The notes below the pieces were generated by a model. The model did not search any database, had not been told where the DNA came from, and worked only from the letters and a program-made list of their open reading frames with translations. 64,000 nucleotides of DNA from a virus: IMG/VR virus record IMGVR_UViG_3300031521_000009. One strand, written 5' to 3'. This document shows positions 3,243 through 63,262 of this stretch, piece by piece. Numbering within the stretch: position 1 is the stretch's first letter; every line of letters starts with the position of its first letter. Made by a program: the position numbers and the translations under genes.

Positions 3243-3614
3243 ATGTCAACACTAGACGAAAAAGCAAAAGAAAATCAATATCCATACAATTATCCTAAAT
3301 TTGGAATGTGGGCTGTTGAAATAACAGAATATATAAGTCGTAATTGGTTTAAAAAAGGTTATGAGTTATGCAAAAAGGAATTTGAAGATAAGCTTCAATG
3401 GATTTCAGTTGATGAAAAAGAACCTGAATGTACTATTGAAGATGAAGGCATTTATTGGTCGGAATATCTTGAAATAAAAGTCAAAGGTTATAATCATCCT
3501 TTCATTGGTTATTATGTAAAAGCAAATGACGATCAGTTCTTTGATTTTATTCATAAAACAGTTGATGAAGGAATTAAACAAGAAGATATTACTCATTATC
3601 GTTTCATACCTTAA
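3243..3614 (+). CDS. DUF551-like phage protein
   Basis: WISVDEKEPE...ITHYRFIP matches the WISVxxxLP...VTHWxxxP pattern. Confidence 0.6.
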   Translation: MSTLDEKAKENQYPYNYPKFGMWAVEITEYISRNWFKKGYELCKKEFEDKLQWISVDEKEPECTIEDEGIYWSEYLEIKVKGYNHPFIGYYVKANDDQFFDFIHKTVDEGIKQEDITHYRFIP

Positions 3615-3652
3615 AAATATAAATTTGTATATAATAATTCTATCTTTTTATA

Positions 3653-3660
3653 TACATTTG
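3653..3660 (+). promoter_or_regulatory. Bacteroidota sigma-70 -7 element (TACATTTG)
   Basis: Matches TAnnTTTG. An upstream TTTG at 3624-3627 has longer-than-usual spacing. No gene lies between it and the terminator. Confidence 0.4.
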
Positions 3661-3750
3661 TACGTGTTATTTAAAAAGTGAGATTTTTGCAATTTTAGTT
3701 AGATTTTTTATACGTCAAAGAGACAGAATGCTGTGAAGTATGTAAAGCTC

Positions 3751-3799
3751 AAAAAGAAAGCCATCTTTCCTATTCGTAGGTTAGATGGCTTATTTTTTT
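3751..3799. terminator. bidirectional intrinsic terminator at the convergence of the two genome halves
   Basis: AAGCCATCT-tt-CCTA-TTCG-TAGG-tt-AGATGGCTT hairpin with an A-run on the left and a T-run on the right. Confidence 0.85.
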
Positions 3800-14900: not shown

Positions 14901-17900
14901 GGATTCTTATCAGTAGTATTTGTTGGGTTTTTATCACCAATAGTATTTTTGGTAAGATTATTCATTGACTGAACCGGTTTAAAACCATAGTTCGCAATCA
15001 TATCAGTAAACTTAGCAAAGTCATTTTCAAATAACCGCATGATAGCTCTTTCCAATTTAGGAAGACTTTCTACTTTTCCACTCTTTACATCATTAGTAAG
15101 ACTTCTAATCTTTTCAATTTTTGATTGTTTATTAATCATATTGAATTGATCTATTTTACCGGTTACTGCATTACCTGGTATAATGACATCAATACCATCA
15201 ACTGTTTCATAAGAAAGTTCATAACTTCCTTTACCGCTTAAATCTTTAGTAAGAGAAGTTGCATCAAACATATTACGTAATTGGTCAAAAGTACCATTTG
15301 CTTGAGCTTCTTTGGAAACATCAATCATCTGTTTACGTAATCCTTTGGTAAAATGAGCTTCATTATTTTCTGCCGGTGCATTCAAGAACTTCGTTTTGGT
15401 AGATAATGATTTGTTTATCTCCATAAGTGCGTTGTTCAGATTTGAACGTGAAGTATTAATACGTTTTTTGATTTTATCGTATTCACGTAATACTTCTGTT
15501 CCGGCAACTGAATAATCAATATTAAAACCATTATCGGTATTGATAAGTGTTGACTCTACTTTGGCAAAGATTATTTTACCAGTATCCGATACTGTTGTAG
15601 TAGGAACATAAATAACCGGCCGAGCTTTTGATTTTACCATTTCTTGCATAAACATGTTGATACTCGTGTCAATGAAGTCAGAAGTATCAATTTTTGTTTT
15701 TCCAATAGAAGTAAATCCAAGTGAACGGTTTTCTCCGATACTTTCTATAAAGCCAGTAATCTTAGTTGTATCTGTAGGGTCTTGTTTAAAGGCATCAAAC
15801 TCTTCATTGAGTGTAGTCTTTAAAGCAACTGAATAAGTGGCTGTACCCTTAGCTGTGTAACGATGGGTATCATTTGTTTGTCCACCTAGTTTCTGCTGTA
15901 TAGAAGCAATCATATTTGATGATACAAACATATCTTCCGGAGTAACATATCTCATAGAAGATACATCATTAGTTATCTCTTCATTTTCTACAATGTCAGG
16001 TTGTACTTCAAAAGTAATAAGGTTCTTTGGTGTTGTTCTATTTAGGAAGCCAAGAACTATATCACTTCCGGTAATACTCTGGATGCGTGTCAATGGTGAT
16101 AAACTTTCTTTTGTATTATATCGAATATGATTTAATAGGTTACGTTGTATGATAACTTTCTTAGCCGGTTTATTAATGTCCTCATTAGCTTTTAAAGTTT
16201 CTTCTGTATAGTTTTTAGAATATTGATTATACAATGTAATCATGGCACCTAAATAATCAGCCATAAAATCTGATGGAGTAGCATAATTGGCTTGTATCTC
16301 AGAATTGAAATTACTTACATATCCAATCTTATTAATAGTTTTCATATTATCAGTAACCTCTGACCAACTATTAGCAACCATAAGACTCTTGAACATGGCC
16401 GGAGTAACACCTTTTAATGCAAACTGTCCTTTGATACGATTAAAGATGTCTACTATATGCGCGTATTCTCCTTTGGTATTAAGCATATCAGTAGAGAAAG
16501 GTGACATAGTAGTATTACCAAACTTTTTAGATGTAGCAATAACACCTTCTTTATTTGCAAATTTGAATCTACCATTTTCGTATTTTAAGAAACTAGTTTT
16601 ATTAGTAACATTATTATACCGGCTTACCTTAATATCAGTATAGTCAATAGACATATTTTCTTTAAAGAATGATATTGAATTTGTGTTCAACTCACCATTC
16701 AAAATCTTATATCCTTGAATACGTTTAATCTCTTCGGCGGTACCTCTCCAAAAGTCTTTATAGTAATGAGTAGACTTCATAGTATCATCATAGTAAGTGA
16801 ACTTAACCTGGTCTTTTACATTGAAAGAAGTATATACACTTACCAATGAATTTAAAAGGTCTTTAGCCTGTTCTATCTTACGTTTTTGATCTTCTTGTTT
16901 AGCATCCCATGACCATGTAGCATCAGAGTTCTGCGCTCCTACTTCTTGTTTCCATTCTTGTTCATTTTGATAAGAACGTTCAAGTAGTCCTTTATAACGA
17001 CCATCATAGTTTTCTTCTGAGATATAATGATTAGAATAGTCAAGTGAGAAATCAGTTCCTTTACCTTTTGCTTCAAACATGTAGTTGTACATGCTATGAA
17101 TTACTTCGGCTGCCGGATTCAAATATCTGTTTGATTCATCAATTTCAGAATTATCAATGAATCCTTCCATAATAGATTTTAATGCAGATACTTTATCAGT
17201 AACACCATCCATTTGACTTACTCGCATACCAAGGTCTATCATCAATGAATGAACTTGTTTCTGATCTAAGAACTTTACTTTTCCGCGGGCATCAAATACA
17301 GCACTACCATTTGTATTGATAAGTGGTATAGAACTAAGATATAGTTTTTGTATATCGGAAACATTCTGTTCAGAAGAATAACCATCCCAATCAAAACGTT
17401 CACCGGCACCCACTTCTTTTTCAAATGAGTCATTCATCATATCATATGATGGAAGCATAGTCTGCACAATCATTCTAATATTTTTATCAGAATAGATTTT
17501 GTATGCATCAATACTATTCCGGCCATTGATATCAGAAAGTTTAATATTCAAAGGTTCTCCATTCTCAACAATATCTTTTACTGCCATTTCATTTTCTTCA
17601 AGTTCTCCTTGTTCATTTTGAGTAATAACAGTGGCCATAGTTTCACCATACAATTCTTGATATTCTTTTCCTTCTTCAATAATAGAATTAATACTTTCCG
17701 ATAATGAATTAATATTACTGTTTTTTGTATTGGAGAAAATAGAGTTTTGAAGTATAGACATTCTTAGTCCGGACTTAGCAATAACTAATGATTCAGTATT
17801 GTAAAGTTCTTTCTTTAATGCTTCTTCCATCTGACTGGCAATAAGTAATCGTTTGCTAGAACTTTCATTTGTTGATTGTACTGTTTCTTCAGAAGTAGTA

Positions 17901-20900
17901 TCACTTTCATATTCTTCAAAAGCAATATCTGATTTTTCAGTATTCATTTCTGGAACCCTATTAGCAAACTCGCCATTGTTTATTTGATTGTATAAGTTCT
18001 TCAACTGTTTGTTTGAACCATATACACCGCGAAGTCCCATAACGATATCTTTCAAGAAACTCTTGAACTGATTGTATAAACGCAAAGCAATATTTACATT
18101 CTTGTCTTTAGTAGTCGCACGTTCTTGTTTTGCATAATCACGAGCAATCCATTCTTCAAGTTCTTTATCACCATTGATAGGTGTTCCTTGTTCATACTTG
18201 TTGATTACCTGGGCCGCTTGTAATAGCATTGCTTTAGCATCAGTATTTATGAAGTTACGATAGACAACATGTAATACTTCATGGTCAACTGTAGAACGTG
18301 GCATCATACCATTCTCTGCTGCTAATGTCATGATAGTATTATCTTGTACCATACCACTTGCAGTAAGACCATTTAAACGAATCTTTCCTTCTTGTGTAAG
18401 GAATAGTTCAGATTCAGTATAAGACTGTCCTAAACGTAAAGCAACACGGTCTATTGACTGTTGTATAGGTTCTACATCAGGAGAAGAGTATTGTGTTTCT
18501 TCAAGTCCTATATTTGGAAGTTTTTTCTTTCCCGGTTTATTTACTGGTGGAGTTGGTGAAGTTATTGGTTCTACTTTATCAAGACCTACATAGAATGATT
18601 TATTGTTTATGCCCAAAGCTTGTACATTAAGCATATCAATAGTTTCTTTACCACTAACATGAGTAGTATAAGTTTCATTGTTTAATGTCAAGAAATCATA
18701 TAATCCGGACATAGCAAGATTATCTTTCTTAGAAAGAAAATCACTTAGTTCTTTATACTGTGAATCAAAACCACTATTACGATCTTTATCTGTCTTGAAA
18801 GAATCAAGATTGATATCCAAGAATGTTTTACTTTTTTGCTGAATCTTAATAAATGCAAAGATTGCTTTATCAGTTGCCTGAGTAGAGTTCTTTAAAGTAG
18901 AAAGGTTCGCGCGCAATAATTTATAAATAGTAGTTTTTGAGAATGCTGTTTGTTTGGCTTTCCACTTTTGTTCATCTGATAAAATAGTAGATGATAATAT
19001 TTCTTGTGAAATAAAGTCCTCTTCTGCCTTAATACGTCCAATGATAGAATCCATAGAAGCATTTGCGCGCTGTTTAATGGTTTCATTCTTGCTAGTAATA
19101 GACTGGCTAAACTTAGGCATTTGTACTACTAAACGAATACTTTCATTACTATTTAATTGAACATTTAAACGTAATCTGCCATCAATATACAATGGAGTTA
19201 TATCAGTTTGTGCGCCAGGGAAGTCTTTCAACAAATCAGTTACCGTTGTCAAATCACTTTCATTATTTGAATACTCTACTTTACGAATACCCATATCATG
19301 AAAATCAACATTTACCTTATCAGTAATACTTGCATGAGTATCATAGATAGACATGTTCATATCACGTTGTTTAATCAATTCAGATTGAACCGGTGCGAAA
19401 ATAGGATTATTGATAACAGCATTCCATGCATCTACTAGTCGTTGTTTCTCAGTTTTCTGTTTTTCAAGTTCAGTTTCCTTTACATCAAATGAAGTATAAG
19501 AAATCTTACCACTTCCATCAATACTAATAACTGATGGTAGAGTCATAGAACCAATAGCATTGGAAAACTTACCACCATTTAATCCCGGAGTAGTAAATAT
19601 GTCATTGATGATAGAATATACTGGTATATCCATTGCTTTTATAGATGTACCATTAGGATTTACTGAATGCTTTTTAATAATGGCATTTACATAATCCTCA
19701 GCAATAGTTCCCATAAAGATATCTTGAATGGCTTGTAACTGTTCTCCTACCAATCCTTTGTTAGTTGGATCAAAAGAAAGAACAATCATATCGTACTTTG
19801 CAGTCTTATTATCCTTATCCCATCCGGTAGTATTTTGTTTCTCAGCTTTTAATTGAAACAAATGTTTATACTGTGATAGGTTCGATATAAAGGCGTCATT
19901 TATTGCACGACGTAACTTACCATTCTCTTGACTTAAACTATCGCTAGCACCAACTAAAGTAGCACTGGTAGCCCAGAAAATATGTGACTTGTTTTTGTTC
20001 TTATCGAATATAGCAGTAGAGTTGTTCAAGAAGCGTTCACGCGATAACTGACTTACTTCATTTGGAACAACTGGTTTCACTTCTTCAATGATTGCAGTAG
20101 GTACCGAGAAATCTTCGTTATCTGAAAGTACTGTTGATACTGTTTGATTTTCGTCAGGGTATATACCGGTTATCTCATACTGAGTAGAGCCATCAGAGAA
20201 TACAGATTCATTGATAGATAATAATTGAAATATGTCTTTTTCATTATTGTCATAATAACTTTCACCAACCTTTAATGCAGTTCCTTTATGTTCATAATCT
20301 TCAACAGAATTTTCTTCTACTAATGTAATAGGATTCTCTGTTGATTGACTTGTACGAAGAATACTTTCAAAACCCGTAATATGTTTGATAAGATTATCTT
20401 TAATTGAAATATTTGGATCAATAGTATTATTGAATTTTGTTTGACCATTCCAATTAATAGAAAGGACATCACGATTACCAACTTTCTTTATTTCCCAATC
20501 AGCATCTACTGTTGCAGTATCTATTAAATCACCATCAGCATTAAAGTAATTAATCTTTAATCCTACCTCTTTACCCGAAGTTTGATTCTGATTATTATTA
20601 CTAGGGTTTGGAGTGGTCACTGTAGGGTTAGCAATAGGTGCTGTTGCCACTTTCTGTGCTTCCATACTCATACTATTCATATCAGTATTTAAACCCTGTA
20701 AACGCAATGTTTCAATAGCTCTGAATTTTTCCTTTTGTTGTAGCTGAATAGCATTCAATGCTTCTTCCGGTAAACCAGTAGATGCAGCAAGAGAACGGTC
20801 AACATTCAAAGAAGTATCACCAACCATACCATACCAAGAGCTAGAACGACCAATAGCAGTATAAAGTGCTGAGGCCATTAAACTTGTAGTAATAGGTTTT

Positions 20901-23900
20901 GCTATCTGACTACTATCAGACTGTCTGAATACAGCATAGATTTCTTTCTGACGTAATCCTTGCAGTAGTTTATTATCATTGACACCGCGACGTAAAGCAA
21001 AATAGATTTTATCCTTATTTGCTTCTATTTGTTTTTTAAGTGTATCATTGTCTTTAGTAAACGCATCCAGTGCATCCTGATCTAAGAAAATAGCTGCTCT
21101 ATCCGGATTGGTAGCAAGACCATCTATGAACGAGTTCCATACATCCATGTGTGATGCAAAGAAACGCGCTCCTAATTTAGTCTTACCACTTATATCTTCT
21201 GTCACCTTATCAAACTTTACTATTCTACCAATGGCACCAATAGCCGGGCGACATGCTTCTGCAAGTTGACGAAGTAATGGAGAAGTAGCACTAAATTGTT
21301 CAGTAAGCATGTGCGTAGTCATTGTCTGCAACATCATCAAAGGATAATGACCTACAGAACCTGCATCACGCATTTGGAATACATCACCCATGAATACTAA
21401 TTTGGCTTTTGTATTTACAAAATGTTCTTTGATAGCTTTCATTTCATTTTCAGAAACAAGTGATGCTTCATCAATAACATAAGTATTTCCTTCTGTAGTA
21501 TTCATACTCTTCATTCCTTTGATAAAATCAGTATATGATATTACTGTTGGATTTTCAGCACCAAAAGATTGTTTATGTACCTTAGAAAGTTCTTCCGTAA
21601 TACTTACTACTGTTAGTTTACCTACTGATGATTTCTTATCAGTACTATATCCATCAAGTCCGCGAAGTATTCTAAATGCTCTTCCTACAGTGAACTGAGT
21701 CTTTCCAGTACCATAATCTCCACCAATAGTCAATGCATTGCTTAGATAGCTTTCTATGAAGTGATGGCCACCCTTCTCAGTAGCTATTGAATGCATAGGT
21801 AAAAAGTAATTTGCAAATAACGACAAAGGACTTGTAAGCGTTTTATTGCTTAAAAGTCCAACTATTGAATTGATTGCAGCTTCTTGTTCTCCCGTTTCTA
21901 ATGGTGTATTTGACTCATTAGTAAATATCATTTTTCGTATCTTGAACATATCGTTCATACTGTATTTACTACCTATCCAGATAAGCGTGTTCAAGTGTTC
22001 GCGCAGTCGGGTAATATCATTTGCATTAGAACTGGAAAAATTGTATTTACGTTTGGAAACACCACCAACATTCTCCATAGTAAATAATGGATTACGGGCA
22101 TGTAGTTCACGAGTAGAATTTGTCAATGAACCATTCTCTCCAATATGTGAAGATGAATCATCAGCATGTAAAAGAGTACCTTCTGAATTAAGTACTTTTC
22201 CATCTTCTCCAATAGAATCATTGGCAACATAAAACTCACGGAATATCTCAAACAACAAATCTTGATTGTCCTTAGAAAATAATTCAGAATTTTCTTTATT
22301 ATATTCGACATTCATTTCAGAAAGGATATTGTTTACGATATTCTCTCTTTTAGATAACTGAGTAAGTTGTGCTTCGGTAAGTTGTCCTTTTGCATCAAGA
22401 ATAGATGGATCAAGTTCTCCAATAGCATTTAATTCTTCAATTAAGTTCTGACTGATTATTTGCGTGCCATCAGAACGACGTAATCCAAGAGTAGTAAATA
22501 ATTGAACACTCTTGAATGTATTCTCATGAATGATAACACGACTATGCAAACGTAACATTTGATTGGCCAAGTCAGCACCATCAATCTTACTTGCAAGTTC
22601 ATCAGCCATACGTATAGCATCACGTAATTGAATCTCATAGGTATTGTTACCATTAGCATTTTTACTTGCCAATTCAGAAACAAATTCACGTTCCGGTTGT
22701 GACTGATGATCACTTACTTTCTTTTCATTAGCAATACGTTCAGAAGTCTTGAAAGTATAAAGGAAATGTTCATTCTTTTTTACTCTATCAATCTCTTGAC
22801 GAATGATTTCAGAACCATTAGTACCATAAAATTTACCATCAGGATATTCTTTCTTATAAGTTTCTCCCTGGTCAGTAAGAACTGAATTAATCCATACCTC
22901 AGCTTCTTTCATCGTATCTTGTAATTCTGTGAAGTAATTACTCAAAAATGTTTTACCATTTGGAGTATTCTGTTCACGCATTAGTTTAATACGTTTTTGA
23001 AATTGTTCCGGAGTTTCATTAGCATGTTCTAATGTCTGTCCATCAATACGCATAAATGGAAGTTTACCTTTCCCATTAAATGAAGAGTATTGATTATTTA
23101 CGTTTTCAAGTCCCAGCGCGCGTGCAGCAGCATTCAACTGATTATCATGAGAGAATTGTTCATCATCAAAACTTTCAATTGTACGTTCGGCTTTTCCTAC
23201 TTCTTCTGCAGCAGTTTGACTTTCATCTTGATAATGTTTCAATTCTTGTTGAATAGCATTTAGCTTATCAGTTTCTTGTTGACGTTGTTCATCGCTGGTT
23301 TCCGCCGGTAAAGAATTGATAGTTTCTAATTGAGCATCATATTCAGATTGTTTAGTAGTAATGAATGGTTCCAATTCAGCAACACGTTTACCATACATAT
23401 CAATTTTTTCATTGGCCGGAGTAAGAATCTTACCTTCTGCTTGCTGAGCGATATTAGAAGTAAGTCCTTTTGCAGCATCATACATTGATGAAAACTTATT
23501 TTTAAGTTCATCAAGTTTACTATTATCCATTGTAGTACCAAATACATTTCCACTTGTTTGGTCATTGAATACAGATAATTCTTTAGCTAAACGATTAGAC
23601 AATCCGGCAACATCAGTAATCAATGATTTATGCTCAGCTTCATTATACGGTTTTGAAAGAGTATCACCTATTCGTTGTTGTAAGGCATTTAAATCACTCG
23701 ATAATGTTGCATGAGTAGTTTGGTTATCTATATCATTAATAATGGCATTAGCATGTGTCTGTTGAGCTTGTGCAGCTTCATCTACACGTTGACGTAAGTT
23801 CTCAATGTTTTCATACGTAAAGTTCTTCTTAATTACATTCTCCCATGATGCAGCATATTGACGTTGGAAGTTAGGATCGTTTTTCATCTCCCGAGTAAAC

Positions 23901-26488
23901 TCTTTTGAGTTAGTAAGAGCTTGCATTTCCATTTCAACTTGTTTCATAACGGTAACGTTACGTTTCATCAAGTCATTGGCCGCTTTAGAGTTTTGAGTTC
24001 CCTCTTCACGTTTAGTATAATACTCGTATTCAGATAAAGCTTTATTATACTTATCAACTAATGGTTGCTTAGCTTCTTCATTTTCTTTTTGAAGTTGAGC
24101 AATCTGTTCATCAGTAGCAGTAGCACCTGCTTCTTTTGGTTGAAATGATTCAATAGCAGCTTTACTATCGCGCATATCCATGAAAGCTTGACCAGATTTG
24201 TTTAATGATATCTGACCATCAAATCCAGCCTGAGAAAGAATGTTTCTATCAACATCATTCAACCCCATACTTTCATTCAACTCTTTATACGAGTCCACTA
24301 ATTGCACAAATTCGACATACCTCATTTCAGCGAAGTTGTCGATTAATTGTCCCTCTTGATATCCCAATTTTTGTAGAGATGGACTCTTAGGTACTGAGAA
24401 TAAACTTGGATCAAATTGTTCTCCTACAGTAGCATCTTTGATAAGGATATCTTTCACTCCCCACATACCACCATCAGGTTTCTGAATATGATCAGTAGCT
24501 ATATTGATAAGTTCATCACCTTGGCCTTTCAGAACTTTCCATTTCAGTAATTCTTTTTGTTGAGTTTCTGTTTTACTGTCGGGAATACCTTTAATCTTTT
24601 TGATTACGTGAGGAACAGCACCAGTAATAGCAGTCATTAAAGTAGTAGCAAATATGGTTCCTAAAGAAGTATCTGAAAATCCTTCAAATACACCAGTAGT
24701 ACCTATCTGTCCATTACCAACTTCGGAATATGCTGGAGCAGCTTTATCAACTTGCATTTGAACAGTATTGTATAATGCTTGCTCAAAATTTTCTTGAAAG
24801 ACTTCACTAACATTTGCTTTGGCTACATTAGCAAGATAACTTTCATTGTCAACAATACCTTTAATGAATTTGCTATTGTATATCTTAGAGAAACTATCGT
24901 AAACAGCTTCTTTAATAGTCTTGTCAGTAAGTGTACCGGCAGCTTCTTTAGCAGCTAATTTTTGAGCCATTGGAGCATAGATTTCTCTCATAGCCTTTTC
25001 AGCAATGTTTGGTCCTAGTTGTTCACCAATCCATTTATTTGTAAAATGTTCAGTAACGTATGTCAATGGTAAAGCAAAGAATCCAAATTTAGCAGTTGTT
25101 TCCGGACTAACACCATTTTCATCAGCTACACGTTGAAATGAACTATAAGACTGTGAAGTACCAATAGCATTTACTAGAAACTCAGTACCATACTGCAAAG
25201 CTTTTGTTGCAATACCTTTACCAGCAAATGCTGCAGTACCTTCTAATGCAGACATAGCACCACCCGAAGCCATACCTACAGCTATCTGAGGAAGAAGATA
25301 ACCAAGTGTCGGAGCTTGACGTACCATCCAATCAATAGCACCGGTTCCTTGTTCTGTAGATGCTGATTGTTTAAATTCAGCTTGTTTCCAATCATTGAAA
25401 AAACCTTGTAATGCTTTATCTCCTTTTGACCAATTAATCGGTTGTGCTTCTCTACGTAATGAATTACCTACATTAGATGGAAGAGAGCCATAAGAGTAAT
25501 TGAATGCTTTATTCATAGCATCATAATCACCAGATTCAAATGCTTTATCAAGTTCTTCTACAGCCTTTACATTGCCTTGTGCTAAGTTAGCAGCACGTAC
25601 TTTATCATAATGTTTCTGAATGGCTTCATTACCTTGTTTGTAAAGATAAGTTTCATCATGATTCATTGCATTATTGAAAAGTGCACCAACAGAAGAAAAG
25701 GAACTCATAGTACCGGCGGTTGCTGCACTGTAAGCTCCTACAAAGAAATCTTTAATAGAACTACCAAATGTTTCTTTTGGACCCCACTTAGTTGAGTACT
25801 GTCTATCTCCTGCAACAAAAGCATCTGATGGTAATACATCAAATACTTCACGTCCATTGGTAGGGTCAATAGTTGTTGTTACTACTGCCTTTCCATCACC
25901 AAACATCTTATCCATTCCATCCTTTCCAGGGTTAGGAATACGTTTACCATTCTTCAAAATGTATGGTGCAGCAGAAGCACGTTCTTCACCGGTACCGCGT
26001 TCATTATCTTCATTACGAAATGGATCATGATAAGGCCCCCAATCAGGTCTGATATCTTTTACATTACCCAAATCTTTATCATGAACTGCTCTACCAGTAA
26101 CTGCTGAGTTTTGTGTGTCGTGATAAAACTTTAATGCTGATAAGTCAACACCTCTTTTATTTAAACTTACTTTCTTTGCATTCTCTACTTTTGCCTGATT
26201 AAAAGTTTTGATTATTTGACTTGCTGGTAAAGCTTCCGTATCAGTAGGATTTTTTTCTTTTGAGTACTTATCTACATAATAGTTTATATCGTTGAAAACA
26301 GGCTGCTCAGAATGCGCCATAGAGGTAAAGATATCTGCAGTTGATTGCTTATTCTTCAAAGCATCACCAACTACATCAACCTTACCTTGGTAATTTCCTT
26401 CTTGGTCTACAAATGCATCACTAGTCTGTGCTTGATATTTTTCTTCAAGTGTTGGTACTACTGGTTGTGCTTGTTCTTGGTTATCCAT
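8984..26488 (-). CDS. virion-packaged RNA polymerase polyprotein (crAss-type) with SF1 helicase and zincin domains
   Basis: 5834 aa. RNAP catalytic loop NDSDYDIDAL at 12581-12601 (compare DFDID of phi14:2 gp66). Walker A GGDYGTGKT at 21698-21724, plus IDEAS, GDVFQ and LYTAIGR. HEVLH at 18269-18283. Position matches crAss-like RNAP genes. Confidence 0.88.
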   Translation of the reverse strand: MDNQEQAQPVVPTLEEKYQAQTSDAFVDQEGNYQGKVDVVGDALKNKQSTADIFTSMAHSEQPVFNDINYYVDKYSKEKNPTDTEALPASQIIKTFNQAKVENAKKVSLNKRGVDLSALKFYHDTQNSAVTGRAVHDKDLGNVKDIRPDWGPYHDPFRNEDNERGTGEERASAAPYILKNGKRIPNPGKDGMDKMFGDGKAVVTTTIDPTNGREVFDVLPSDAFVAGDRQYSTKWGPKETFGSSIKDFFVGAYSAATAGTMSSFSSVGALFNNAMNHDETYLYKQGNEAIQKHYDKVRAANLAQGNVKAVEELDKAFESGDYDAMNKAFNYSYGSLPSNVGNSLRREAQPINWSKGDKALQGFFNDWKQAEFKQSASTEQGTGAIDWMVRQAPTLGYLLPQIAVGMASGGAMSALEGTAAFAGKGIATKALQYGTEFLVNAIGTSQSYSSFQRVADENGVSPETTAKFGFFALPLTYVTEHFTNKWIGEQLGPNIAEKAMREIYAPMAQKLAAKEAAGTLTDKTIKEAVYDSFSKIYNSKFIKGIVDNESYLANVAKANVSEVFQENFEQALYNTVQMQVDKAAPAYSEVGNGQIGTTGVFEGFSDTSLGTIFATTLMTAITGAVPHVIKKIKGIPDSKTETQQKELLKWKVLKGQGDELINIATDHIQKPDGGMWGVKDILIKDATVGEQFDPSLFSVPKSPSLQKLGYQEGQLIDNFAEMRYVEFVQLVDSYKELNESMGLNDVDRNILSQAGFDGQISLNKSGQAFMDMRDSKAAIESFQPKEAGATATDEQIAQLQKENEEAKQPLVDKYNKALSEYEYYTKREEGTQNSKAANDLMKRNVTVMKQVEMEMQALTNSKEFTREMKNDPNFQRQYAASWENVIKKNFTYENIENLRQRVDEAAQAQQTHANAIINDIDNQTTHATLSSDLNALQQRIGDTLSKPYNEAEHKSLITDVAGLSNRLAKELSVFNDQTSGNVFGTTMDNSKLDELKNKFSSMYDAAKGLTSNIAQQAEGKILTPANEKIDMYGKRVAELEPFITTKQSEYDAQLETINSLPAETSDEQRQQETDKLNAIQQELKHYQDESQTAAEEVGKAERTIESFDDEQFSHDNQLNAAARALGLENVNNQYSSFNGKGKLPFMRIDGQTLEHANETPEQFQKRIKLMREQNTPNGKTFLSNYFTELQDTMKEAEVWINSVLTDQGETYKKEYPDGKFYGTNGSEIIRQEIDRVKKNEHFLYTFKTSERIANEKKVSDHQSQPEREFVSELASKNANGNNTYEIQLRDAIRMADELASKIDGADLANQMLRLHSRVIIHENTFKSVQLFTTLGLRRSDGTQIISQNLIEELNAIGELDPSILDAKGQLTEAQLTQLSKRENIVNNILSEMNVEYNKENSELFSKDNQDLLFEIFREFYVANDSIGEDGKVLNSEGTLLHADDSSSHIGENGSLTNSTRELHARNPLFTMENVGGVSKRKYNFSSSNANDITRLREHLNTLIWIGSKYSMNDMFKIRKMIFTNESNTPLETGEQEAAINSIVGLLSNKTLTSPLSLFANYFLPMHSIATEKGGHHFIESYLSNALTIGGDYGTGKTQFTVGRAFRILRGLDGYSTDKKSSVGKLTVVSITEELSKVHKQSFGAENPTVISYTDFIKGMKSMNTTEGNTYVIDEASLVSENEMKAIKEHFVNTKAKLVFMGDVFQMRDAGSVGHYPLMMLQTMTTHMLTEQFSATSPLLRQLAEACRPAIGAIGRIVKFDKVTEDISGKTKLGARFFASHMDVWNSFIDGLATNPDRAAIFLDQDALDAFTKDNDTLKKQIEANKDKIYFALRRGVNDNKLLQGLRQKEIYAVFRQSDSSQIAKPITTSLMASALYTAIGRSSSWYGMVGDTSLNVDRSLAASTGLPEEALNAIQLQQKEKFRAIETLRLQGLNTDMNSMSMEAQKVATAPIANPTVTTPNPSNNNQNQTSGKEVGLKINYFNADGDLIDTATVDADWEIKKVGNRDVLSINWNGQTKFNNTIDPNISIKDNLIKHITGFESILRTSQSTENPITLVEENSVEDYEHKGTALKVGESYYDNNEKDIFQLLSINESVFSDGSTQYEITGIYPDENQTVSTVLSDNEDFSVPTAIIEEVKPVVPNEVSQLSRERFLNNSTAIFDKNKNKSHIFWATSATLVGASDSLSQENGKLRRAINDAFISNLSQYKHLFQLKAEKQNTTGWDKDNKTAKYDMIVLSFDPTNKGLVGEQLQAIQDIFMGTIAEDYVNAIIKKHSVNPNGTSIKAMDIPVYSIINDIFTTPGLNGGKFSNAIGSMTLPSVISIDGSGKISYTSFDVKETELEKQKTEKQRLVDAWNAVINNPIFAPVQSELIKQRDMNMSIYDTHASITDKVNVDFHDMGIRKVEYSNNESDLTTVTDLLKDFPGAQTDITPLYIDGRLRLNVQLNSNESIRLVVQMPKFSQSITSKNETIKQRANASMDSIIGRIKAEEDFISQEILSSTILSDEQKWKAKQTAFSKTTIYKLLRANLSTLKNSTQATDKAIFAFIKIQQKSKTFLDINLDSFKTDKDRNSGFDSQYKELSDFLSKKDNLAMSGLYDFLTLNNETYTTHVSGKETIDMLNVQALGINNKSFYVGLDKVEPITSPTPPVNKPGKKKLPNIGLEETQYSSPDVEPIQQSIDRVALRLGQSYTESELFLTQEGKIRLNGLTASGMVQDNTIMTLAAENGMMPRSTVDHEVLHVVYRNFINTDAKAMLLQAAQVINKYEQGTPINGDKELEEWIARDYAKQERATTKDKNVNIALRLYNQFKSFLKDIVMGLRGVYGSNKQLKNLYNQINNGEFANRVPEMNTEKSDIAFEEYESDTTSEETVQSTNESSSKRLLIASQMEEALKKELYNTESLVIAKSGLRMSILQNSIFSNTKNSNINSLSESINSIIEEGKEYQELYGETMATVITQNEQGELEENEMAVKDIVENGEPLNIKLSDINGRNSIDAYKIYSDKNIRMIVQTMLPSYDMMNDSFEKEVGAGERFDWDGYSSEQNVSDIQKLYLSSIPLINTNGSAVFDARGKVKFLDQKQVHSLMIDLGMRVSQMDGVTDKVSALKSIMEGFIDNSEIDESNRYLNPAAEVIHSMYNYMFEAKGKGTDFSLDYSNHYISEENYDGRYKGLLERSYQNEQEWKQEVGAQNSDATWSWDAKQEDQKRKIEQAKDLLNSLVSVYTSFNVKDQVKFTYYDDTMKSTHYYKDFWRGTAEEIKRIQGYKILNGELNTNSISFFKENMSIDYTDIKVSRYNNVTNKTSFLKYENGRFKFANKEGVIATSKKFGNTTMSPFSTDMLNTKGEYAHIVDIFNRIKGQFALKGVTPAMFKSLMVANSWSEVTDNMKTINKIGYVSNFNSEIQANYATPSDFMADYLGAMITLYNQYSKNYTEETLKANEDINKPAKKVIIQRNLLNHIRYNTKESLSPLTRIQSITGSDIVLGFLNRTTPKNLITFEVQPDIVENEEITNDVSSMRYVTPEDMFVSSNMIASIQQKLGGQTNDTHRYTAKGTATYSVALKTTLNEEFDAFKQDPTDTTKITGFIESIGENRSLGFTSIGKTKIDTSDFIDTSINMFMQEMVKSKARPVIYVPTTTVSDTGKIIFAKVESTLINTDNGFNIDYSVAGTEVLREYDKIKKRINTSRSNLNNALMEINKSLSTKTKFLNAPAENNEAHFTKGLRKQMIDVSKEAQANGTFDQLRNMFDATSLTKDLSGKGSYELSYETVDGIDVIIPGNAVTGKIDQFNMINKQSKIEKIRSLTNDVKSGKVESLPKLERAIMRLFENDFAKFTDMIANYGFKPVQSMNNLTKNTIGDKNPTNTTDKNPYYQQLEKSEIRFNQPMFGFYMATMFANNHIDDFSLNPFSFKNYLDKVKRNGPIHTPAQSVLTQGTKEVVQNNVRYQLHTPTLTTESPIVFYRDNMVDGGNTYQEIDGQKVLANNGNMMKPEDGQITINPFHYLQTLNSIGGTKTVIGNASMYKGLTNFRRADGTYSQIKRGDKVITGFDMQHTYYRNMFMRMLAETDRQLVARVGEESFNENKLSFTDKFKELYDDKNNQKEFNDIIVDMMNWIDNQQYYQDRITINPDGIERAGHMYNSIVAFMAPVSTQKGSVTSVNTYDALNDVDYSQPLNMDVVDNTKTKIVMNPSQDTDINAKLQAAPSQQDATGLGVSNNPEISSLYSAYMENKQGLQTALRKELEESISKYGEVEAAKQFKNIDWSKYDVSTLTEQQKSEIDPAIKQLMDFMRDRVVNSLRTSGQDMAFIELFSDMDVSMQLPMMRSKVLQSYRNMANQSIQARTKGIRLTQTVGEYLEEFVRDGKIYSRNDAINELRPGTNYRDYSFDEYNSDAMNQELAAAGFTMQRLQDMNIVNGKTTVGHISMPNVYAKVYGHRSNESLIDIQHINLGTERIALDSSNLYDKLMAGLSEDADMSLNQWSAFVDSPMIRKAIKNLKIETYVDELINPSVDNDGKRFISKRIANLIDSTREMTTEELQSEVNATNESILEAINSMELQSTDLANPDKVIAALMGSGEILEQILTEAQQLLKDFEESNTSFLSRVPATFLGSGGVFKTAMFHNGGNVVYIPTGMTLRNDSDYDIDALTMYSNSLDSKGHIIQKGADGHRNKMNALRNTITLHSGNQESLFLTSSLDKINEVMKQKEKLVDNLQNNSIRSIYESYSRNKAGADAIGILANSLTVSSIIISSSVNKFVETGTHSGIQNFINENAPKGKIKTGLNGFVIELGTWGQGALDNAKNNTFANYAISPVGINILAVLKLNGMNNSEVYDFFNNKNIRNLFHTYSGKTSIMTKSADFNLWKMASTEVDKIASRIEHFNNTNVSQWLESKGLSWKSNVHDTEKYSLELETTDVLLQQSIDDLLMKELTSYYKNNKEAFKNSPYDFTGSDKEQLLQQWKKDNGFDDENLFTYKNNKIVFDKTDVSNFDIKDLDSISTEVANELKLMVRSRANINIARTDIQGLRYMKMVPKLSVTADALYRLSTIMGMRNGIPSLDKDFRTMINTVQQTIGMSLQEYNSNPASDMNVAKHMAYYTINNDAYNKEQDEKKKAFMFSQEQLVANEINMGKLIKNLPQIDYILQELYRQELITKQSFMADNEAIEKDVVKSFLKLQNRTTLNFGGEVAAVSTAINDIMLDKYYATIGESAIMKGQYIYQAVGNTYENPSQNLDLSSLFDRQSFVKNFPQFMMDIVEHSDNIDYLNKTVQSELPAEEWIRFAVNPLIKLFTIGGKFDVKLLLDVNTKEMTEQRVAQLKDYFNSLPKEYKEMLINYEIIANRMSYRQGGLLQVIGVDFYKGPISKVYNDTYAELRSSLGLDSLVPNKYRKSVTFNSDIRERIYDYLGLQPEFAQYLSPKAVVNENSPKYAYQFETKTIDGEKVNTGHRINLKLNDNNAYEVFGNITSLGMSTMAGENMTSELRSFQTTPEEEYNLSLANRDNNDLILHQGSRAWVSEGQFLYTRSGKLIRVIKVKGTNFEYRLANDSDITYRMEQKEMDTQKRNNRIQLKEGTLQHSIFDPNATSLTENEVTKPMEYKVKGNMFLSQLNINTLTNDGVETRISIFDNKNKFNSINEVLDAYKYKVLSTIGEKTKNFPWDLKNYQNEEHRRNKINKYIRNLVDDVQVVETEKNANEIKQIKIAMAQLNFKQSLIVKALVQARALAYISSQGKNMVEQLTSKISSTDFLANQKTTFNKEVEDMSVGITTYGKVARSAIVEMINPAVRAEMKATESKRSEMLNTLEGSLELFDSEIAKKDSKKEVAEGEPAIGTPAQDNESDNNDEKNKCK

Positions 26489-47936: not shown

Positions 47937-48578
47937 TTATTTTGCTATAAAATATCCACCTATTGCACCGGCGCCTAAATAAAACCAAATATCATTTTTA
48001 CTCCACCATCCCGTTGAACGTTTTAATGCTCCAATCAAATCTTTTTTTTCTTTTTGAAGAACAAGATTTTCATTTTTGGATTGTTCTGTTTCTTCTACTT
48101 GTAGAAAGTATTTTTTAGTTACATCAGTCAGACTTAATTCGGTACTTGCTAATTTTTTCTCAGTACTTTTTATGATGGTATCTTTCTGCTGCAGAGAAAT
48201 ATTTTTTAGTCCTACAAGACTGTCACAATTTGCAAGAGTATGCTTAGTAGTATCGGTATTATAATCATTCTCAAACTTACTTATCTTATTTGTAAGAACT
48301 GAATTTTTGTTCTTATAAGTAGTAATCGTTTTAGTTGATTCTAAGCGATCTTTAGCCCTCAAAGTATTCACACTATCGATAGAGTCTTTTAATTGCTTAC
48401 GATAAGCGCTAGTTGCTGTATTATACCCATTACGATATGCAGATGATAGTTCTTGATTTACAATCAAGTTAGATGCTTGTTTTGATTGACATGATTTAAA
48501 CCAACCGCCAATAAACAACAAAAGCGCGATAGAAATTATCGCACTTATTATCCAGTTTTTCTTTATATATTTTATCAT
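47937..48578 (-). CDS. spanin-like lysis protein (N-terminal TM/signal, coiled coil, C-terminal TM)
   Basis: Hydrophobic N-terminus ending FKSC, long coiled coil and C-terminal WFYLGAGAIGGYFIAK; last gene of the lysis cassette. Confidence 0.55.
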   Translation of the reverse strand: MIKYIKKNWIISAIISIALLLFIGGWFKSCQSKQASNLIVNQELSSAYRNGYNTATSAYRKQLKDSIDSVNTLRAKDRLESTKTITTYKNKNSVLTNKISKFENDYNTDTTKHTLANCDSLVGLKNISLQQKDTIIKSTEKKLASTELSLTDVTKKYFLQVEETEQSKNENLVLQKEKKDLIGALKRSTGWWSKNDIWFYLGAGAIGGYFIAK

Positions 48579-48796
48579 TGTTCTCGCGTCCCTCCTGTTA
48601 CGTCACTATCTTTTGTAAGAAAAGCAATTATTGCTGCAAGGAATATACTAATAGGAGAAAGGACCGATGCAACATCAAGAAGTGTGCATTTACCGGTATA
48701 AACAAGAAATAAACAAATGAATAAAACAATTATTCCAATAACACCCATTAAAGATGTTTTCCATGATTTGTGCTTATAAGAAGTACGTGGTTTCAT
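48575..48796 (-). CDS. holin (2 TM)
   Basis: SWKTSLMG motif, two hydrophobic helices and a KDSDVTGG tail; adjacent to the endolysin. Confidence 0.7.
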   Translation of the reverse strand: MKPRTSYKHKSWKTSLMGVIGIIVLFICLFLVYTGKCTLLDVASVLSPISIFLAAIIAFLTKDSDVTGGTREQ

Positions 48797-48866
48797 AATT
48801 ATTAATTTTATGTGTAAATACAACATTAGGGAATGAACTTAATCACTCCCTAATAGATAATAAATA

Positions 48867-48962: not shown

Positions 48963-49451
48963 CTACCGACCAAAGTAAAGTTTTACATCAAGTTTTCTAC
49001 GCTTAATCAAACCATTGGAAGGTTTACCTTTCGAATTAATCCATTTATTAAACTCATGTTCAATATTTGGATCGTTGGAATTTGCAAGAACAAGTTTTAA
49101 AAGACGACTGTCGCCAAGTCCTTCTGGTGTAGAATCAATATCAATATCGCTACCAACATTGTAAGCAAAATCTACAAGTGCATCAAATTTACCTTGATTT
49201 ACTTCAACTGGACCAAGTAAGTAAATTACATCTTTCTCAAATTGTCTTACATCATATTTTAAAAGTTCGTCAGCTTTACTTTGTGTAATAGCAGGATCTT
49301 TCAGACTTACACGAACACCATTTGAATATCGAGTACTACCCCAACCAATAGTAGGAATACCAGATTGACATAAATAAGGTTTAAGTTCACACCCTTCACA
49401 TGATTTTAATACTGCATATCCTTTTTCTGAAAATTTTAAATTTGTATTCAT
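48963..49451 (-). CDS. endolysin, GH24 (T4/P1-type lysozyme)
   Basis: EGCELKPYLCQSGIPTIGWG shows the E-x8-(D/C)-x5-T triad; FDALVDFAYNVG; GLIKRR. Confidence 0.92.
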   Translation of the reverse strand: MNTNLKFSEKGYAVLKSCEGCELKPYLCQSGIPTIGWGSTRYSNGVRVSLKDPAITQSKADELLKYDVRQFEKDVIYLLGPVEVNQGKFDALVDFAYNVGSDIDIDSTPEGLGDSRLLKLVLANSNDPNIEHEFNKWINSKGKPSNGLIKRRKLDVKLYFGR

Positions 49452-49464
49452 AATATGTATTTAT

Positions 49465-49836
49465 TTAATCCGATTTATTTTCAATATCTAAAGCACGCAT
49501 TTTAATTGCTACTGGACAATTATCTGTATTGTCTTTATTATGTTTGCAACTTTTATTAGAACTTACAATCATTCTATATGCTGAGATAAGTCTTTGTGAA
49601 CGATTATCTTTTTTTAGAAGTTTTTCAACATCTTGTTCAAGAGTTTCAATTTTCTTCTCAGCTTCTAATTTCCATTTAAGAAGAAGATTTAGTGAAGTCT
49701 CCCATGATTGATTTTCTTTGATAATTGCATTACTTTTTCGAATGCTAATAGAGGATGGAGAAAAATATGAAACAATACTCATTGCTCCACCAGCAGCTCC
49801 AATAGCTCCACCTATTAATATTAAAATATTATCCAT
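49465..49836 (-). CDS. membrane-anchored coiled-coil protein (holin/antiholin-like)
   Basis: N-terminal Gly-rich TM helix, coiled coil and C-terminal C-x8-CP; directly upstream of the endolysin. Confidence 0.5.
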   Translation of the reverse strand: MDNILILIGGAIGAAGGAMSIVSYFSPSSISIRKSNAIIKENQSWETSLNLLLKWKLEAEKKIETLEQDVEKLLKKDNRSQRLISAYRMIVSSNKSCKHNKDNTDNCPVAIKMRALDIENKSD

Positions 49837-50000
49837 CGTTTTCTTTTTATATAAGTTTCGTCAATTTTTTTTGATTCCTCTAGTAGTCGTATTAAATGAT
49901 CTATTTCATTAGCAGTCATATTATCACAAACTCCATTATCTATTGCTTTTATAACTCTTTTGAAGAGTCGTATGATTGTTTTTTTTAGCGTAGCATCCAT
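49821..50000 (-). CDS. 59-aa protein, paralogue of the N-terminal domain of the HTH protein at 61839 (missing from the ORF track)
   Basis: MDATLKKTIIRLFKRVIKAIDNGVCDNMTANEIDHLIRLLEESKKIDETYIKRKRWIIF*; overlaps both neighbours; aligns without gaps to VLKMIENNECEDLTNEELEQISILI. Confidence 0.75.
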   Translation of the reverse strand: MDATLKKTIIRLFKRVIKAIDNGVCDNMTANEIDHLIRLLEESKKIDETYIKRKRWIIF

Positions 50001-50361
50001 AGTAAAAATATAGAAATATTGATAAACTCAAAGATAATAATAAAATAGCACTCAAACAGTAAAATATATATGGCAATTTTATATTAACCTTATATAAATC
50101 TACTAAGACTAAAATTAAAATATCCGTGTAGATTAATATTCTATGCCAGGAACAAAATCTAAATGTATAAGATAATGCTAACATACCTATATGAAATAAA
50201 TAACAATGACAAATTATAGTCGTATGTGAAGTATATGCTGTATAATCAATAAATCCAAAAGCTTCCCCAGTCATACCTATAGCTAAATAAACTGTAAGTA
50301 TAACTGGGAATAACTTTACGAAGTAAAGAGATACATATCTTGATATATGTTCAAGATTCAT
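49936..50361 (-). CDS. multi-pass membrane protein (about 4 TM) with an FRFCSWHR motif
   Basis: Four hydrophobic stretches and a polar C-x2-H-R motif. Confidence 0.75.
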   Translation of the reverse strand: MNLEHISRYVSLYFVKLFPVILTVYLAIGMTGEAFGFIDYTAYTSHTTIICHCYLFHIGMLALSYTFRFCSWHRILIYTDILILVLVDLYKVNIKLPYIFYCLSAILLLSLSLSIFLYFYYGCYAKKNNHTTLQKSYKSNR

Positions 50362-50366
50362 AATTC

Positions 50367-50876
50367 TTATTTGCTAGGTGGGAATGTTGCACCACCTGAG
50401 TCCGGGCTTTTTTTATCATCAGCTTGATCAGAACTTTCTTTTTTAATTTTCATTTGTTTCCAATTATTTGGTTGTGAAAAAAATTTAAGAGTAATTAAAG
50501 AATTCATAGGTATTCCTTTTGTAGAACGAACTGTTGATTCTTTAATCTCTACTAATGAAATTTTACGTTCAATTTCAAAATCTTTTTGAAGTTTTGCTTG
50601 AAGAATTTTATATTCTTTTTGTTCATCTAATGAAAGTAATAATATACTATCATCATGTTGAGCATTTACTTCTTTCCCTTTTTCTTGAATAATATTTTCT
50701 AATTCAATTAAACGTGGATTAATTGTTTTTTGAATTTTATTATTTTCTTTTTCAAGAATTTCAAAGTTATCTAAGATAAGACAATTTAATTCAGTATTAT
50801 CAATACCTTTAGCAGAAAAAATTGTCATTAAATTACTAATCTCAAAAAACTTTACTCTAATTTCTCCAATTTTCAT
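50367..50876 (-). CDS. hypothetical protein downstream of the tail fibre (possible assembly chaperone) with a peptide-like C-terminal extension
   Basis: 169-aa helical protein; an internal in-frame ATG at 50453 gives MKIKKESSDQADDKKSPDSGGATFPPSK. Confidence 0.6.
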   Translation of the reverse strand: MKIGEIRVKFFEISNLMTIFSAKGIDNTELNCLILDNFEILEKENNKIQKTINPRLIELENIIQEKGKEVNAQHDDSILLLSLDEQKEYKILQAKLQKDFEIERKISLVEIKESTVRSTKGIPMNSLITLKFFSQPNNWKQMKIKKESSDQADDKKSPDSGGATFPPSK

Positions 50877-61743: not shown

Positions 61744-61813
61744 GGGAGTGTAGCTCAAAGGTAGAGCACAACATTTTATGTTGAGGGTGATGGTTCGAGT
61801 CCATTTGGTCCCA
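61744..61813 (+). tRNA. atypical or pseudo tRNA, Lys(UUU)-like with a shortened anticodon arm
   Basis: D arm GCTC-AAAGGTA-GAGC; T arm GATGG-TTCGAGT-CCATT; anticodon arm CAAC-ATTTTAT-GTTG; weak acceptor stem GGGAGTG/TGGTCCC; no encoded CCA. Confidence 0.6.
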
Positions 61814-61838
61814 CTAATATCAATAAACAATTATTACA

Positions 61839-62132
61839 ATGAGAAATTTAAATAAGATCATTTCTATTGTTTTAAAAATGATAGAGAATAATGAATGCGA
61901 AGATTTGACTAATGAAGAATTAGAACAAATATCAATACTTATTCATAGACCTACTACAATGGGCCGAGAAGATGCTGCTAAGTTTATGGGAGTATCACTA
62001 AATAAGTTCCATGAACTAAAAGACATGGGTATAATATCAGAACCGCGCAAACGTAAAGGATTCAAAGAGAAAGAATATTATCTATCTGATTTGAAAAAAG
62101 CATTAGAATTAAAGAAAAAACTAGACCTATAA
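61839..62132 (+). CDS. excisionase/MerR-like HTH regulator with an N-terminal helical domain
   Basis: MGREDAAKFMGVSLNKFHELKDMGIISEPRK is an HTH_17-like winged helix. Confidence 0.75.
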   Translation: MRNLNKIISIVLKMIENNECEDLTNEELEQISILIHRPTTMGREDAAKFMGVSLNKFHELKDMGIISEPRKRKGFKEKEYYLSDLKKALELKKKLDL

Positions 62133-62138
62133 AATTCA

Positions 62139-62179
62139 TTAGTACTAAGTTAGAGTAGTATATAATTTTGACATGTCAA
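62139..62179 (+). promoter_or_regulatory. promoter (-7 TAATTTTG) with palindromic operator candidates
   Basis: TTAGTACTAA at 62139-62148, TAATTTTG at 62163-62170, and the perfect palindrome TTGACATGTCAA at 62168-62179. Confidence 0.55.
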
Positions 62180-62210
62180 CAATTCAGTTGGCAATTAAAA
62201 ACTATATATT

Positions 62211-62942
62211 ATGTTGACATTAGATGGTACACTACCAACTGGCTCATTAGGCGGTGGTAGTTCAATGGGTTCCGGAGTAGGTCTTGGAGCAGTCGGTGGT
62301 GGTGTTGCTGGGTTAGTTCTCGGTTCACTTCTTGCAAACAATGGTAATGGTTTGTTTGGTGGTGGTAACAATGGCAATGCAAATGTTGCTGAGTTTGGTG
62401 CTATCAATAACCAAATACAATCATTGGCCGGTCAAATCAGTAATACTGCATTGACTGGTCAAATTCGTGCTGATACTATTGACCTTTCTCAAAGTATTAG
62501 TAATGTAGGTACACAAATAGGACAATTGGCGACTGCTCAAGCTGCAGCTAATTTTACTACTTTGGATTCAATCAATGGATTGGGAAGAGATATTACCGCT
62601 TCTCAAAATCAGAATGCTCTTCAACAATTAAACAGTTTCAATAACCTTACTACAACTACATTGCAAGGCTTCAATAGCTCAGCAATGCAAGTACAAAATG
62701 CTACGAATCAAATCATAGCACAAGGTACGGCTAATGCAGCTGCTATGGCTCAATGCTGTTGTGAGATTAAGAGTACTATTCTTGCCGATGGTAATGCAAC
62801 ACGCGCACTTATCAATGACTTGAATGTTCAAAATTTACGGGATCAACTTTCTGCTGCTAACAACAAAATCAGTAACAATGAACAAAATCAGTATTTGTTG
62901 AATACTATTTTGACTCATATTACTCCTACAGCAGTAGTTTAA
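62211..62942 (+). CDS. glycine-zipper membrane protein with a long N/Q-rich coiled coil and a CCC motif
   Basis: GVGLGAVGGGVAGLVLGSLL TM segment, heptad repeats and AQCCCEIK. Confidence 0.85.
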   Translation: MLTLDGTLPTGSLGGGSSMGSGVGLGAVGGGVAGLVLGSLLANNGNGLFGGGNNGNANVAEFGAINNQIQSLAGQISNTALTGQIRADTIDLSQSISNVGTQIGQLATAQAAANFTTLDSINGLGRDITASQNQNALQQLNSFNNLTTTTLQGFNSSAMQVQNATNQIIAQGTANAAAMAQCCCEIKSTILADGNATRALINDLNVQNLRDQLSAANNKISNNEQNQYLLNTILTHITPTAVV

Positions 62943-62953
62943 TACTTGCAATT

Positions 62954-63262
62954 ATGGCCAGTCCAGTAATTGTAGGTACTTCGGCTATAGTAGTCGCTCC
63001 TATAAATAAGAAAAGAAGTAACATTCGATTTCAGAATACCAGTACTAATATAATCTATATAAAGAAAATTCCTTTGAGTGGTCCTTATTCGGTTGTATCT
63101 GCTACTGATTATGAAATTCAATTGTTCCCGGCATCATCTTCTCAGGAAGGTGGTGAAGCATTCGAAACTAACTCTATTGCATCTTTTATGGCTATTGCAG
63201 CCGGAGCAAGTAGTGCTTTAGCAGTTTATGAAACTAATAAGGTAACCTCTAAAACTCATTAA
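62954..63262 (+). CDS. small all-beta protein (102 aa)
   Basis: KRSNIRFQNTSTNIIYI pattern suggests a jelly-roll / spike-base-like fold; co-transcribed with the CCC gene. Confidence 0.65.
   Translation: MASPVIVGTSAIVVAPINKKRSNIRFQNTSTNIIYIKKIPLSGPYSVVSATDYEIQLFPASSSQEGGEAFETNSIASFMAIAAGASSALAVYETNKVTSKTH

Follow-up and report, generated by a model that had tools for sequence, protein, structure and literature searches.

A 59-residue protein in the lysis cassette of a crAss-like peat phage, related to the N-terminal hairpin of a helix-turn-helix regulator and possibly an adaptor of a membrane module

The window analysed here is a 64,000 nt stretch of IMG/VR record IMGVR_UViG_3300031521_000009. 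It belongs to an uncultured crAss-like peat phage, the terminase of which shares 27-28 % identity with its counterparts in crAss-like phages of Bacteroidota, and its DNA was found in many peat metagenomes. The minus strand carries a lysis cassette in the order 4-TM membrane protein, P0001, 1-TM coiled-coil protein, endolysin, 2-TM protein and Rz-like protein, followed by the terminase, portal and major head genes; the same cassette order was present in relatives with other endolysin types. The 4-TM protein (49936-50361, 141 aa) has a basic C-terminal tail and an invariant F.FC.WH..LI loop, within which the Cys, Trp and His of F.FC.WH are invariant across the family. Hydropathy and charge place both the loop and the strongly basic tail on the cytoplasmic side. 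Next comes P0001 (49821-50000, minus strand, 59 codons with an ATG start), and then a 123-aa protein (49465-49836) with an N-terminal Gly-rich TM helix, a coiled coil and an invariant C-terminal Cys-Pro. The endolysin (48963-49451) matched Phage_lysozyme in Pfam (E 1.6e-29) and the PHROG endolysin family (E 3.4e-38). It is followed by a small 2-TM protein (48575-48826), a holin candidate without a family match whose equivalent position in relatives is taken by proteins of 73-78 aa, and by a 213-aa coiled-coil protein with an N-terminal TM segment (47937-48578) that weakly matched a PHROG Rz-like spanin (E 3e-4). Apart from that weak match, no membrane protein of the cassette matched a known holin, antiholin or spanin family. 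Elsewhere on the minus strand, the structural block includes a single ORF of 5834 codons (8984-26488) beside one of 1725 codons.

P0001 overlaps both of its neighbours, its first 65 nt with the end of the 4-TM ORF and its last 16 nt with the start of the 123-codon ORF, and the ATG that starts the following gene takes its TG from a conserved Trp codon in the P0001 tail. Relatives sharing 95, 90 and 75 % identity were each 59 aa long with an intact ORF, the family as a whole spanned 57-62 aa, and an exhaustive profile search added ten more distant relatives of 44-62 aa. In its own frame dN/dS was 0.01-0.12, against about 0.6-3 in other frames. Over the whole ORF the range was 0.03-0.12, whilst the central part free of overlap gave 0.01-0.07 against about 0.6-2.2 in the other two frames, with substitutions sitting at third codon positions. 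P0001 is a real gene under purifying selection. The first-pass annotation had allowed that it might be a decaying remnant; it was intact in all relatives, and the dN/dS values do not fit that description.

P0001 has no TM segment (maximum 19-residue hydropathy 0.47), and its AF2 model (pLDDT 87) comprised helices at residues 3-21, 24-27 and 30-58, that is, a pair of long helices with a short helical turn (residues 24-27) between them. No HTH family of Pfam was matched, the winged HTH of about 50 residues (HTH_17, PF12728) is absent, and the predicted fold leaves no space for one. The annotation's proposal that the HTH had been replaced by a short tail therefore stands as regards the missing HTH and fails as regards the tail, since helix 2 is predicted to run beyond the hairpin, through residue 58. 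In the P0001 family the turn contains an invariant Cys, with the preceding Gly and the following Asp equally invariant. Neither P0001 nor the 4-TM and 1-TM coiled-coil proteins had a significant match in Pfam, PHROGs, NCBIfam, PADLOC or PDB sequences. For the P0001 model, Foldseek gave no match in the PDB, and a wide VIA-align search found generic helical hairpins only, at Z <= 6, where helical models do not rise above noise. The ESM Atlas yielded no usable match, and when 50,697 phage records were searched by blastn with the lysis region, none matched. No PHROG or Pfam lysis family was matched by P0001 at E <= 0.1, which says little because families of lysis regulators are very diverse.

The presumed regulator, P0002, lies on the plus strand (61839-62132, 97 aa) immediately downstream of a tRNA-Lys(UUU) gene identified with ARAGORN (61744-61814, plus strand). 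It combines an N-terminal hairpin with a winged HTH of the MerR/excisionase type (HTH_17). At least 50 relatives were identified at 54-100 % identity. PF12728, of which the N-terminal hairpin is not a part, was matched by 11 of 27 family members (best E 4.8e-6), and in Foldseek the C-terminal half of the P0002 model resembled the RdfS excisionase, GlnR, MerR-type regulators and RacA. A Gly-rich membrane/coiled-coil protein of 243 aa and a protein of 102 aa are encoded downstream (62211-63262, plus strand). In 13 of 16 representative loci with a P0002-type gene the HTH gene was likewise followed by a Gly-rich gene, 12 of the 13 also having a gene for a protein of about 100 aa.

Between the HTH gene and the Gly-rich gene lies a conserved inverted repeat, GTCAAC AATTCA GTTGGC (62174-62193), which in L014 and L035 reads ACTAAC...GTTAGT through compensatory change. 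It may act as an operator or fold as an RNA hairpin; no second copy was found in the window, including near the lysis cassette. The palindrome TTGACATGTCAA at 62168 was set aside in its favour, being neither conserved in relatives nor repeated in the window. A sigma-70 promoter scan returned fewer sites than shuffled sequences and is uninformative for a Bacteroidota-type host. Several relatives depart from the common arrangement around P0002. An HNH/AP2-like ORF of homing-endonuclease type takes the place of the Gly-rich gene in L011 (3003-3767). In six metagenome loci (L086-L091, e.g. L089 2501-2786) the P0002-type gene is cut to 52 aa right after the hairpin by a deletion that took out the HTH together with the Gly-rich gene and its downstream neighbour, and that fused the hairpin to the tail of a homologue of the 63527-63835 gene; this form is an independent HTH-less hairpin. 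The trio of HTH, Gly-rich and 100-aa genes was also found no more than about 2.5 kb from a gene for a peptidoglycan hydrolase (Phage_lysozyme, Glucosaminidase) in L032 (12784-13332) and L034 (7464-7877), neither of which had a 4-TM gene nearby, and this setting hints that the trio, too, is linked to lysis.

The first-pass annotation had described P0001 as a paralogue of the N-terminal domain of P0002. The two reading frames translate to proteins of 59 and 97 aa as it gave them, and its ungapped alignment was reproduced, with eight identities over 25 residues (V, K, I, N, C, T, E and L). BLASTP of the pair gave E 3e-4, and the Smith-Waterman score of 51 was equalled by 0, 1 and 4 of 5000 shuffles (p about 2e-4 to 8e-4), a pairwise result that by itself fails correction for the approximately 5000 gene pairs of the window. 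Profile comparisons were stronger. An HMM of the P0002 N-terminus (41 columns, 27 relatives) was run on all 842 six-frame stop-to-stop ORFs of the window, and P0001 was its best non-self match (16.3 bits, E 3.5e-4; next match 0.11), whilst all 17,682 decoys, made by reversal or shuffling, stayed below 12 bits. Alignment of the P0001 family (13 sequences) to the P0002 family (27 sequences) with hhalign gave a probability of 87-93 %, E 4e-6 and a score of 33, compared with a mean of 10 (sd 2, maximum 21) over 600 column shuffles. In six-frame searches of nine related viral genomes the P0001-family profile matched in four, each time only at the N-terminus of a P0002-type protein (E 4.4e-6, 2.5e-5, 1.6e-3 and 3e-3). 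A bridging group of 94-aa proteins (L042 type) matched both sides, at an hhalign probability of 96.5 % (E 9e-10) with the P0001 profile and at 2e-5 with the P0002 N-terminal HMM.

The reverse search was weaker. For the whole-length P0001-family profile, P0002 remained the first match after self, at E 0.08, and it was not among the top six matches of a profile restricted to the P0001-family hairpin. Predicted helices are nonetheless in register, at 3-21 and 30-58 in P0001 and at 2-16 and 25-36 in P0002, where the winged HTH follows. The shared domain comprises approximately 35 N-terminal residues in a helix - G-x-C/F-D/E-x-h-T/S turn - helix arrangement, with only about 30 % identity between the two hairpins. 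Taken together, these sequence comparisons make it very probable that P0001 is a small protein homologous to the N-terminal hairpin of an HTH regulator from the same genome. Outside the window, co-occurrence of the two gene types is indicated only by the listing of each on a contig of equal length, 172,319 bp.

The genomic setting of the hairpin supports the same relationship. IMG/VR was searched with the 4-TM alignment alone as an independent test of synteny, and in all 31 loci returned a hairpin ORF overlapped the 4-TM gene or lay just after it. Overall, every one of 68 loci with a 4-TM ORF carried a hairpin gene, without exception across 16 clusters of 4-TM proteins below 60 % identity to each other; in L040 a 393-aa TnpB-like ORF (3343-4521) has been inserted between the two. 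Three forms of the gene were seen in this position: hairpin only (58-77 aa), hairpin plus HTH_17, and hairpin plus another C-terminus of about 50 aa. The hairpin plus HTH form was found directly downstream of the 4-TM gene in genomes G003-G008, usually overlapping it. Because that form holds the same slot after the 4-TM gene in related phages, P0001 is its positional counterpart, and to judge from these sequences the slot in the window is that of a hairpin plus HTH gene that has lost or exchanged its output domain. Whether the hairpin stands alone or is joined to the HTH, the ATG of its gene lies within the codons for a conserved Lys-Asn-Gly in the 4-TM protein (AAA AAT GGx), which makes the overlap ancestral. 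These statistics and the shared synteny uphold the claim of paralogy. P0002 itself stands away from the 4-TM gene, of which the window has no second copy. In G002, a complete, terminally repeated genome, a hairpin plus HTH gene is present without any 4-TM gene, and the hairpin must therefore have a role independent of the 4-TM protein, for example in dimerization.

The residue at the turn of the hairpin varied with this context. Every hairpin encoded next to a 4-TM gene had Cys, whilst HTH proteins encoded where a 4-TM gene is lacking, whether from a locus or from a whole genome such as G002, had Phe or Leu, a correlation that comprises few independent changes and in which three of the four non-Cys contexts are known from +/-10 kb or less. 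At least two changes were needed to place the Cys label on a tree of 41 HTH proteins. P0002 belongs to a Cys clade nested among non-Cys sequences, its closest relatives outside the window having Phe or Leu. A shared metal site formed by the single conserved Cys of each of the three proteins is possible, though pure speculation.

Comparison with relatives indicated that parts of the cassette have been exchanged around P0001. Between the window and L002, identity was 85-98 % over the 59-aa and 123-aa genes and about 50 % over the peptide tail and 4-TM gene on one side and over the endolysin on the other. The swapped cassettes, at 50001-50456 (peptide tail and 4-TM gene) and 48963-49451 (endolysin), flank the hairpin and 1-TM pair, and the recombination breakpoints enclose that pair exactly. 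A co-existing strain, present in four peat runs, carried the same 59-aa gene with 19 differences, with 50001-50456 replaced by 430 unlike bases. Identities of the hairpin and the 1-TM coiled-coil protein fell in parallel over four comparisons (95/91, 90/72, 75/44 and 41/15 %). Those of the 4-TM protein in the same comparisons were 28, 77, 34 and 34 %, so the hairpin does not track the 4-TM gene. The disparity was present in both directions, with 4-TM and hairpin identities of 28 % versus 95 % between the window and L002 and of 65 % versus 19 % between L005 and L039. As the two do not co-evolve, any interface between them must use conserved motifs only. The 1-TM coiled-coil gene was the next ORF in ten hairpin-only loci. 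In one other (L039) the downstream ORF missed the E 1e-3 threshold, matching the 1-TM profile at E 2e-3, and L008 and L010 end too early to show the gene. Where annotated, the gene that follows it encodes a peptidoglycan hydrolase (Phage_lysozyme, GH108, Peptidase_M15_3 or, faintly, PG_binding_1). No 1-TM coiled-coil gene was found in genomes whose hairpin gene carries the HTH.

Upstream of the 4-TM gene, most lineages examined had a small peptide ORF with a Gly/Pro-rich tail. In the window this frame (50367-50453, minus strand) ends in ...PDSGGATFPPSK and is in frame with a 169-aa ORF (50367-50876). Relatives encode it as an ORF of its own, 33-51 aa long (L002 682-792; L004 2534-2638; L005 245-355; L027 1343-1498), with tails of the form ...PRTGGG(T/S/A)... 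or DPPxPxPPIxP. The peptide, 4-TM and hairpin genes together define a conserved three-gene unit without an assigned family, the cytoplasmic part of which occurs with or without a DNA-binding domain.

The reading we favour, in which we place about even confidence, is that P0001 is a cytoplasmic adaptor, not itself DNA-binding, of the membrane module in the lysis cassette. The contacts and the link to lysis timing are what we infer. The hairpin would serve as a protein-protein interaction module that docks on the cytoplasmic face of the 4-TM protein, through the F.FC.WH loop and the basic C-terminal tail; docking is the simplest reading because the 4-TM protein is the constant companion of the hairpin. 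Adjacency of the two genes could reflect co-expression or translational coupling alone. Self-association of the hairpin is also probable, given that HTH proteins retain it in a genome without a 4-TM gene. Both functions bear on the annotation's suggestion that the shared domain mediates dimerization or binding of a membrane partner: the second gained strong, though indirect, support from the 31 loci described above, and the first remains likely in view of the G002 hairpin. Together with the co-inherited 1-TM coiled-coil protein, P0001 may serve a membrane complex as its adaptor or regulatory subunit. The genes for such a complex lie just before that of the endolysin, so it would be a lysis-timing device of the holin/antiholin type, and lysis timing is the most likely output of P0001 since it is co-inherited with the 1-TM protein and heads the lysis genes. 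The hairpins of P0001 and P0002 could compete for one partner, a possibility raised by the Cys-type hairpin that P0002 keeps without an adjacent 4-TM gene.

Other readings place the partner of P0001 elsewhere. It may pair with P0002 through the hairpin, in a mixed bundle that blocks DNA binding or holds the regulator at the membrane late in infection ('early' and 'late' being read from gene neighbourhoods only). It is the dominant-negative role put forward by the first-pass annotation, in which the 59-aa protein would titrate or tether the HTH copy as a temporal switch. Homologous hairpins in two proteins of one genome would suit such an arrangement, as would the retention of a Cys-type turn in the P0002 clade and a number of conserved hydrophobic positions that exceeds the needs of a lone two-helix unit. 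There is also the precedent of SinI, which shares the helical-hook surface of SinR and as a heterodimer abolishes DNA binding by SinR (PMC3163267). We nevertheless consider this pairing rather unlikely, as the low identity of the two hairpins counts against it, the partner conserved over all architectures is the 4-TM gene and not a second hairpin gene, and the inverted repeat downstream of P0002 has no counterpart near the lysis cassette. Rather improbable, too, is that P0001 acts only with the 1-TM coiled-coil protein, for instance as a cytoplasmic regulator of the antiholin kind whose role would resemble that of T4 RIII, its likeness to P0002 being historical and without a present link to the 4-TM protein or P0002. 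The co-occurrence of the two genes in ten loci, their parallel divergence, the breakpoints that bracket them and the lack of a 1-TM gene in HTH-form genomes all speak for this account. It leaves unexplained, however, why a 4-TM gene precedes the hairpin gene in every architecture and why Cys at the turn is retained only in the company of a 4-TM gene, and neither protein had a sequence match to a known lysis regulator.

Two further accounts concern the reading frame itself. The hairpin ORF is always in the +1 frame relative to the 4-TM ORF, with an overlap of 32-77 nt, and within the 65-nt overlap of the window lies a run of eight A residues (49979-49986, minus strand; A6-A8 among relatives) that encodes Lys-Lys in both frames. 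Some or all of the hairpin product could be made fused to the C-terminus of the 4-TM protein if ribosomes shifted by +1, or the transcript lost one A, at this run, and in L006-L008 the ATG of the hairpin gene is replaced by ACG. An ATG or GTG start is nevertheless still present in every lineage, the genes of G007 are separated by a 7-nt gap and its hairpin gene has its own ATG, and an exhaustive protein search yielded no fusion, all the proteins found being about 60 aa long. The run showed no indels in contigs of the four peat runs, and A6 is a poor slippage site; we regard this route as very unlikely. Least credible of all is that the similarity of P0001 to P0002 is due to chance, or that P0001 is non-coding or a decaying remnant. 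The pairwise score, which does not survive correction for all gene pairs of the window, leaves room for coincidence, but the profile, decoy and shuffle tests, the genome-wide profile matches, the shared synteny and the dN/dS values contradict it.

The adaptor reading can be extended, in a form that we think doubtful, to a sensing or communication module of environmental crAss-like phages built from the peptide, the 4-TM protein and the hairpin, with interchangeable hairpin outputs and swapping akin to that of pherotypes. The hairpin would be the cytoplasmic transducer. One output would be a winged HTH controlling the operon of the Gly-rich protein, and the other, as in the lysis cassette here, an HTH-less adaptor tied to the 1-TM coiled-coil protein and the endolysin, through which the signal would act directly on lysis. 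The peptide and 4-TM cassette would be exchanged between co-existing strains in the manner of pherotypes whilst the transducer is kept, and both outputs in this phage would share one receptor. More generally, if the hairpin docks on the membrane protein, the unit would offer a compact way for a membrane event to act either on transcription or, directly, on lysis; the HTH-less copy would in that case amount to a domain dissection carried out by nature, and to a viral counterpart of micro-regulators of the SinI type.

To our knowledge, very little has been characterized of how crAss-like (Bacteroidota) phages control lysis and regulate their genes. T4 RIII and P1 LydB are cytoplasmic antiholins or lysis regulators, and P0001 is likewise small, soluble and encoded beside membrane proteins and an endolysin in a lysis cassette. 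There is no match in sequence or fold, and the holin here would be the 4-TM or the 2-TM candidate. We know of no antiholin domain fused to a DNA-binding domain, whereas the P0001 hairpin is so fused in sister phages. In those phages the soluble HTH protein may be held by the membrane protein encoded with it, through a domain set apart from DNA binding, and an analogy is offered by the membrane sequestration of transcription factors, as of Mlc by PtsG or in anti-sigma systems, although the families are unrelated and sequestration here is suggested by synteny only. Among the excisionase and MerR-like regulators with HTH_17 (PF12728), the P0002 family has the winged HTH, whilst P0001 is homologous to their N-terminal extension only. 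The closest parallel in design is SinI/SinR (and SlrA/SlrR) of Bacillus subtilis, where, as with P0001 and P0002, a protein of about 57 aa that consists only of an oligomerization surface accompanies an HTH regulator of about 100 aa. The HTH of SinR is N-terminal and of the Xre type, in contrast to the C-terminal MerR/excisionase (HTH_17) type of P0002. There is no sequence relationship between the two pairs, the heteromer of P0001 and P0002 is putative, and P0001, unlike SinI, is tied to a membrane-protein gene and lysis genes. An HTH-less paralogue of a regulator is in itself a known kind of protein; what seems not to have been described before is that it is always paired with a gene for a membrane protein, that its outputs can be exchanged and that it sits in a crAss-like lysis cassette.
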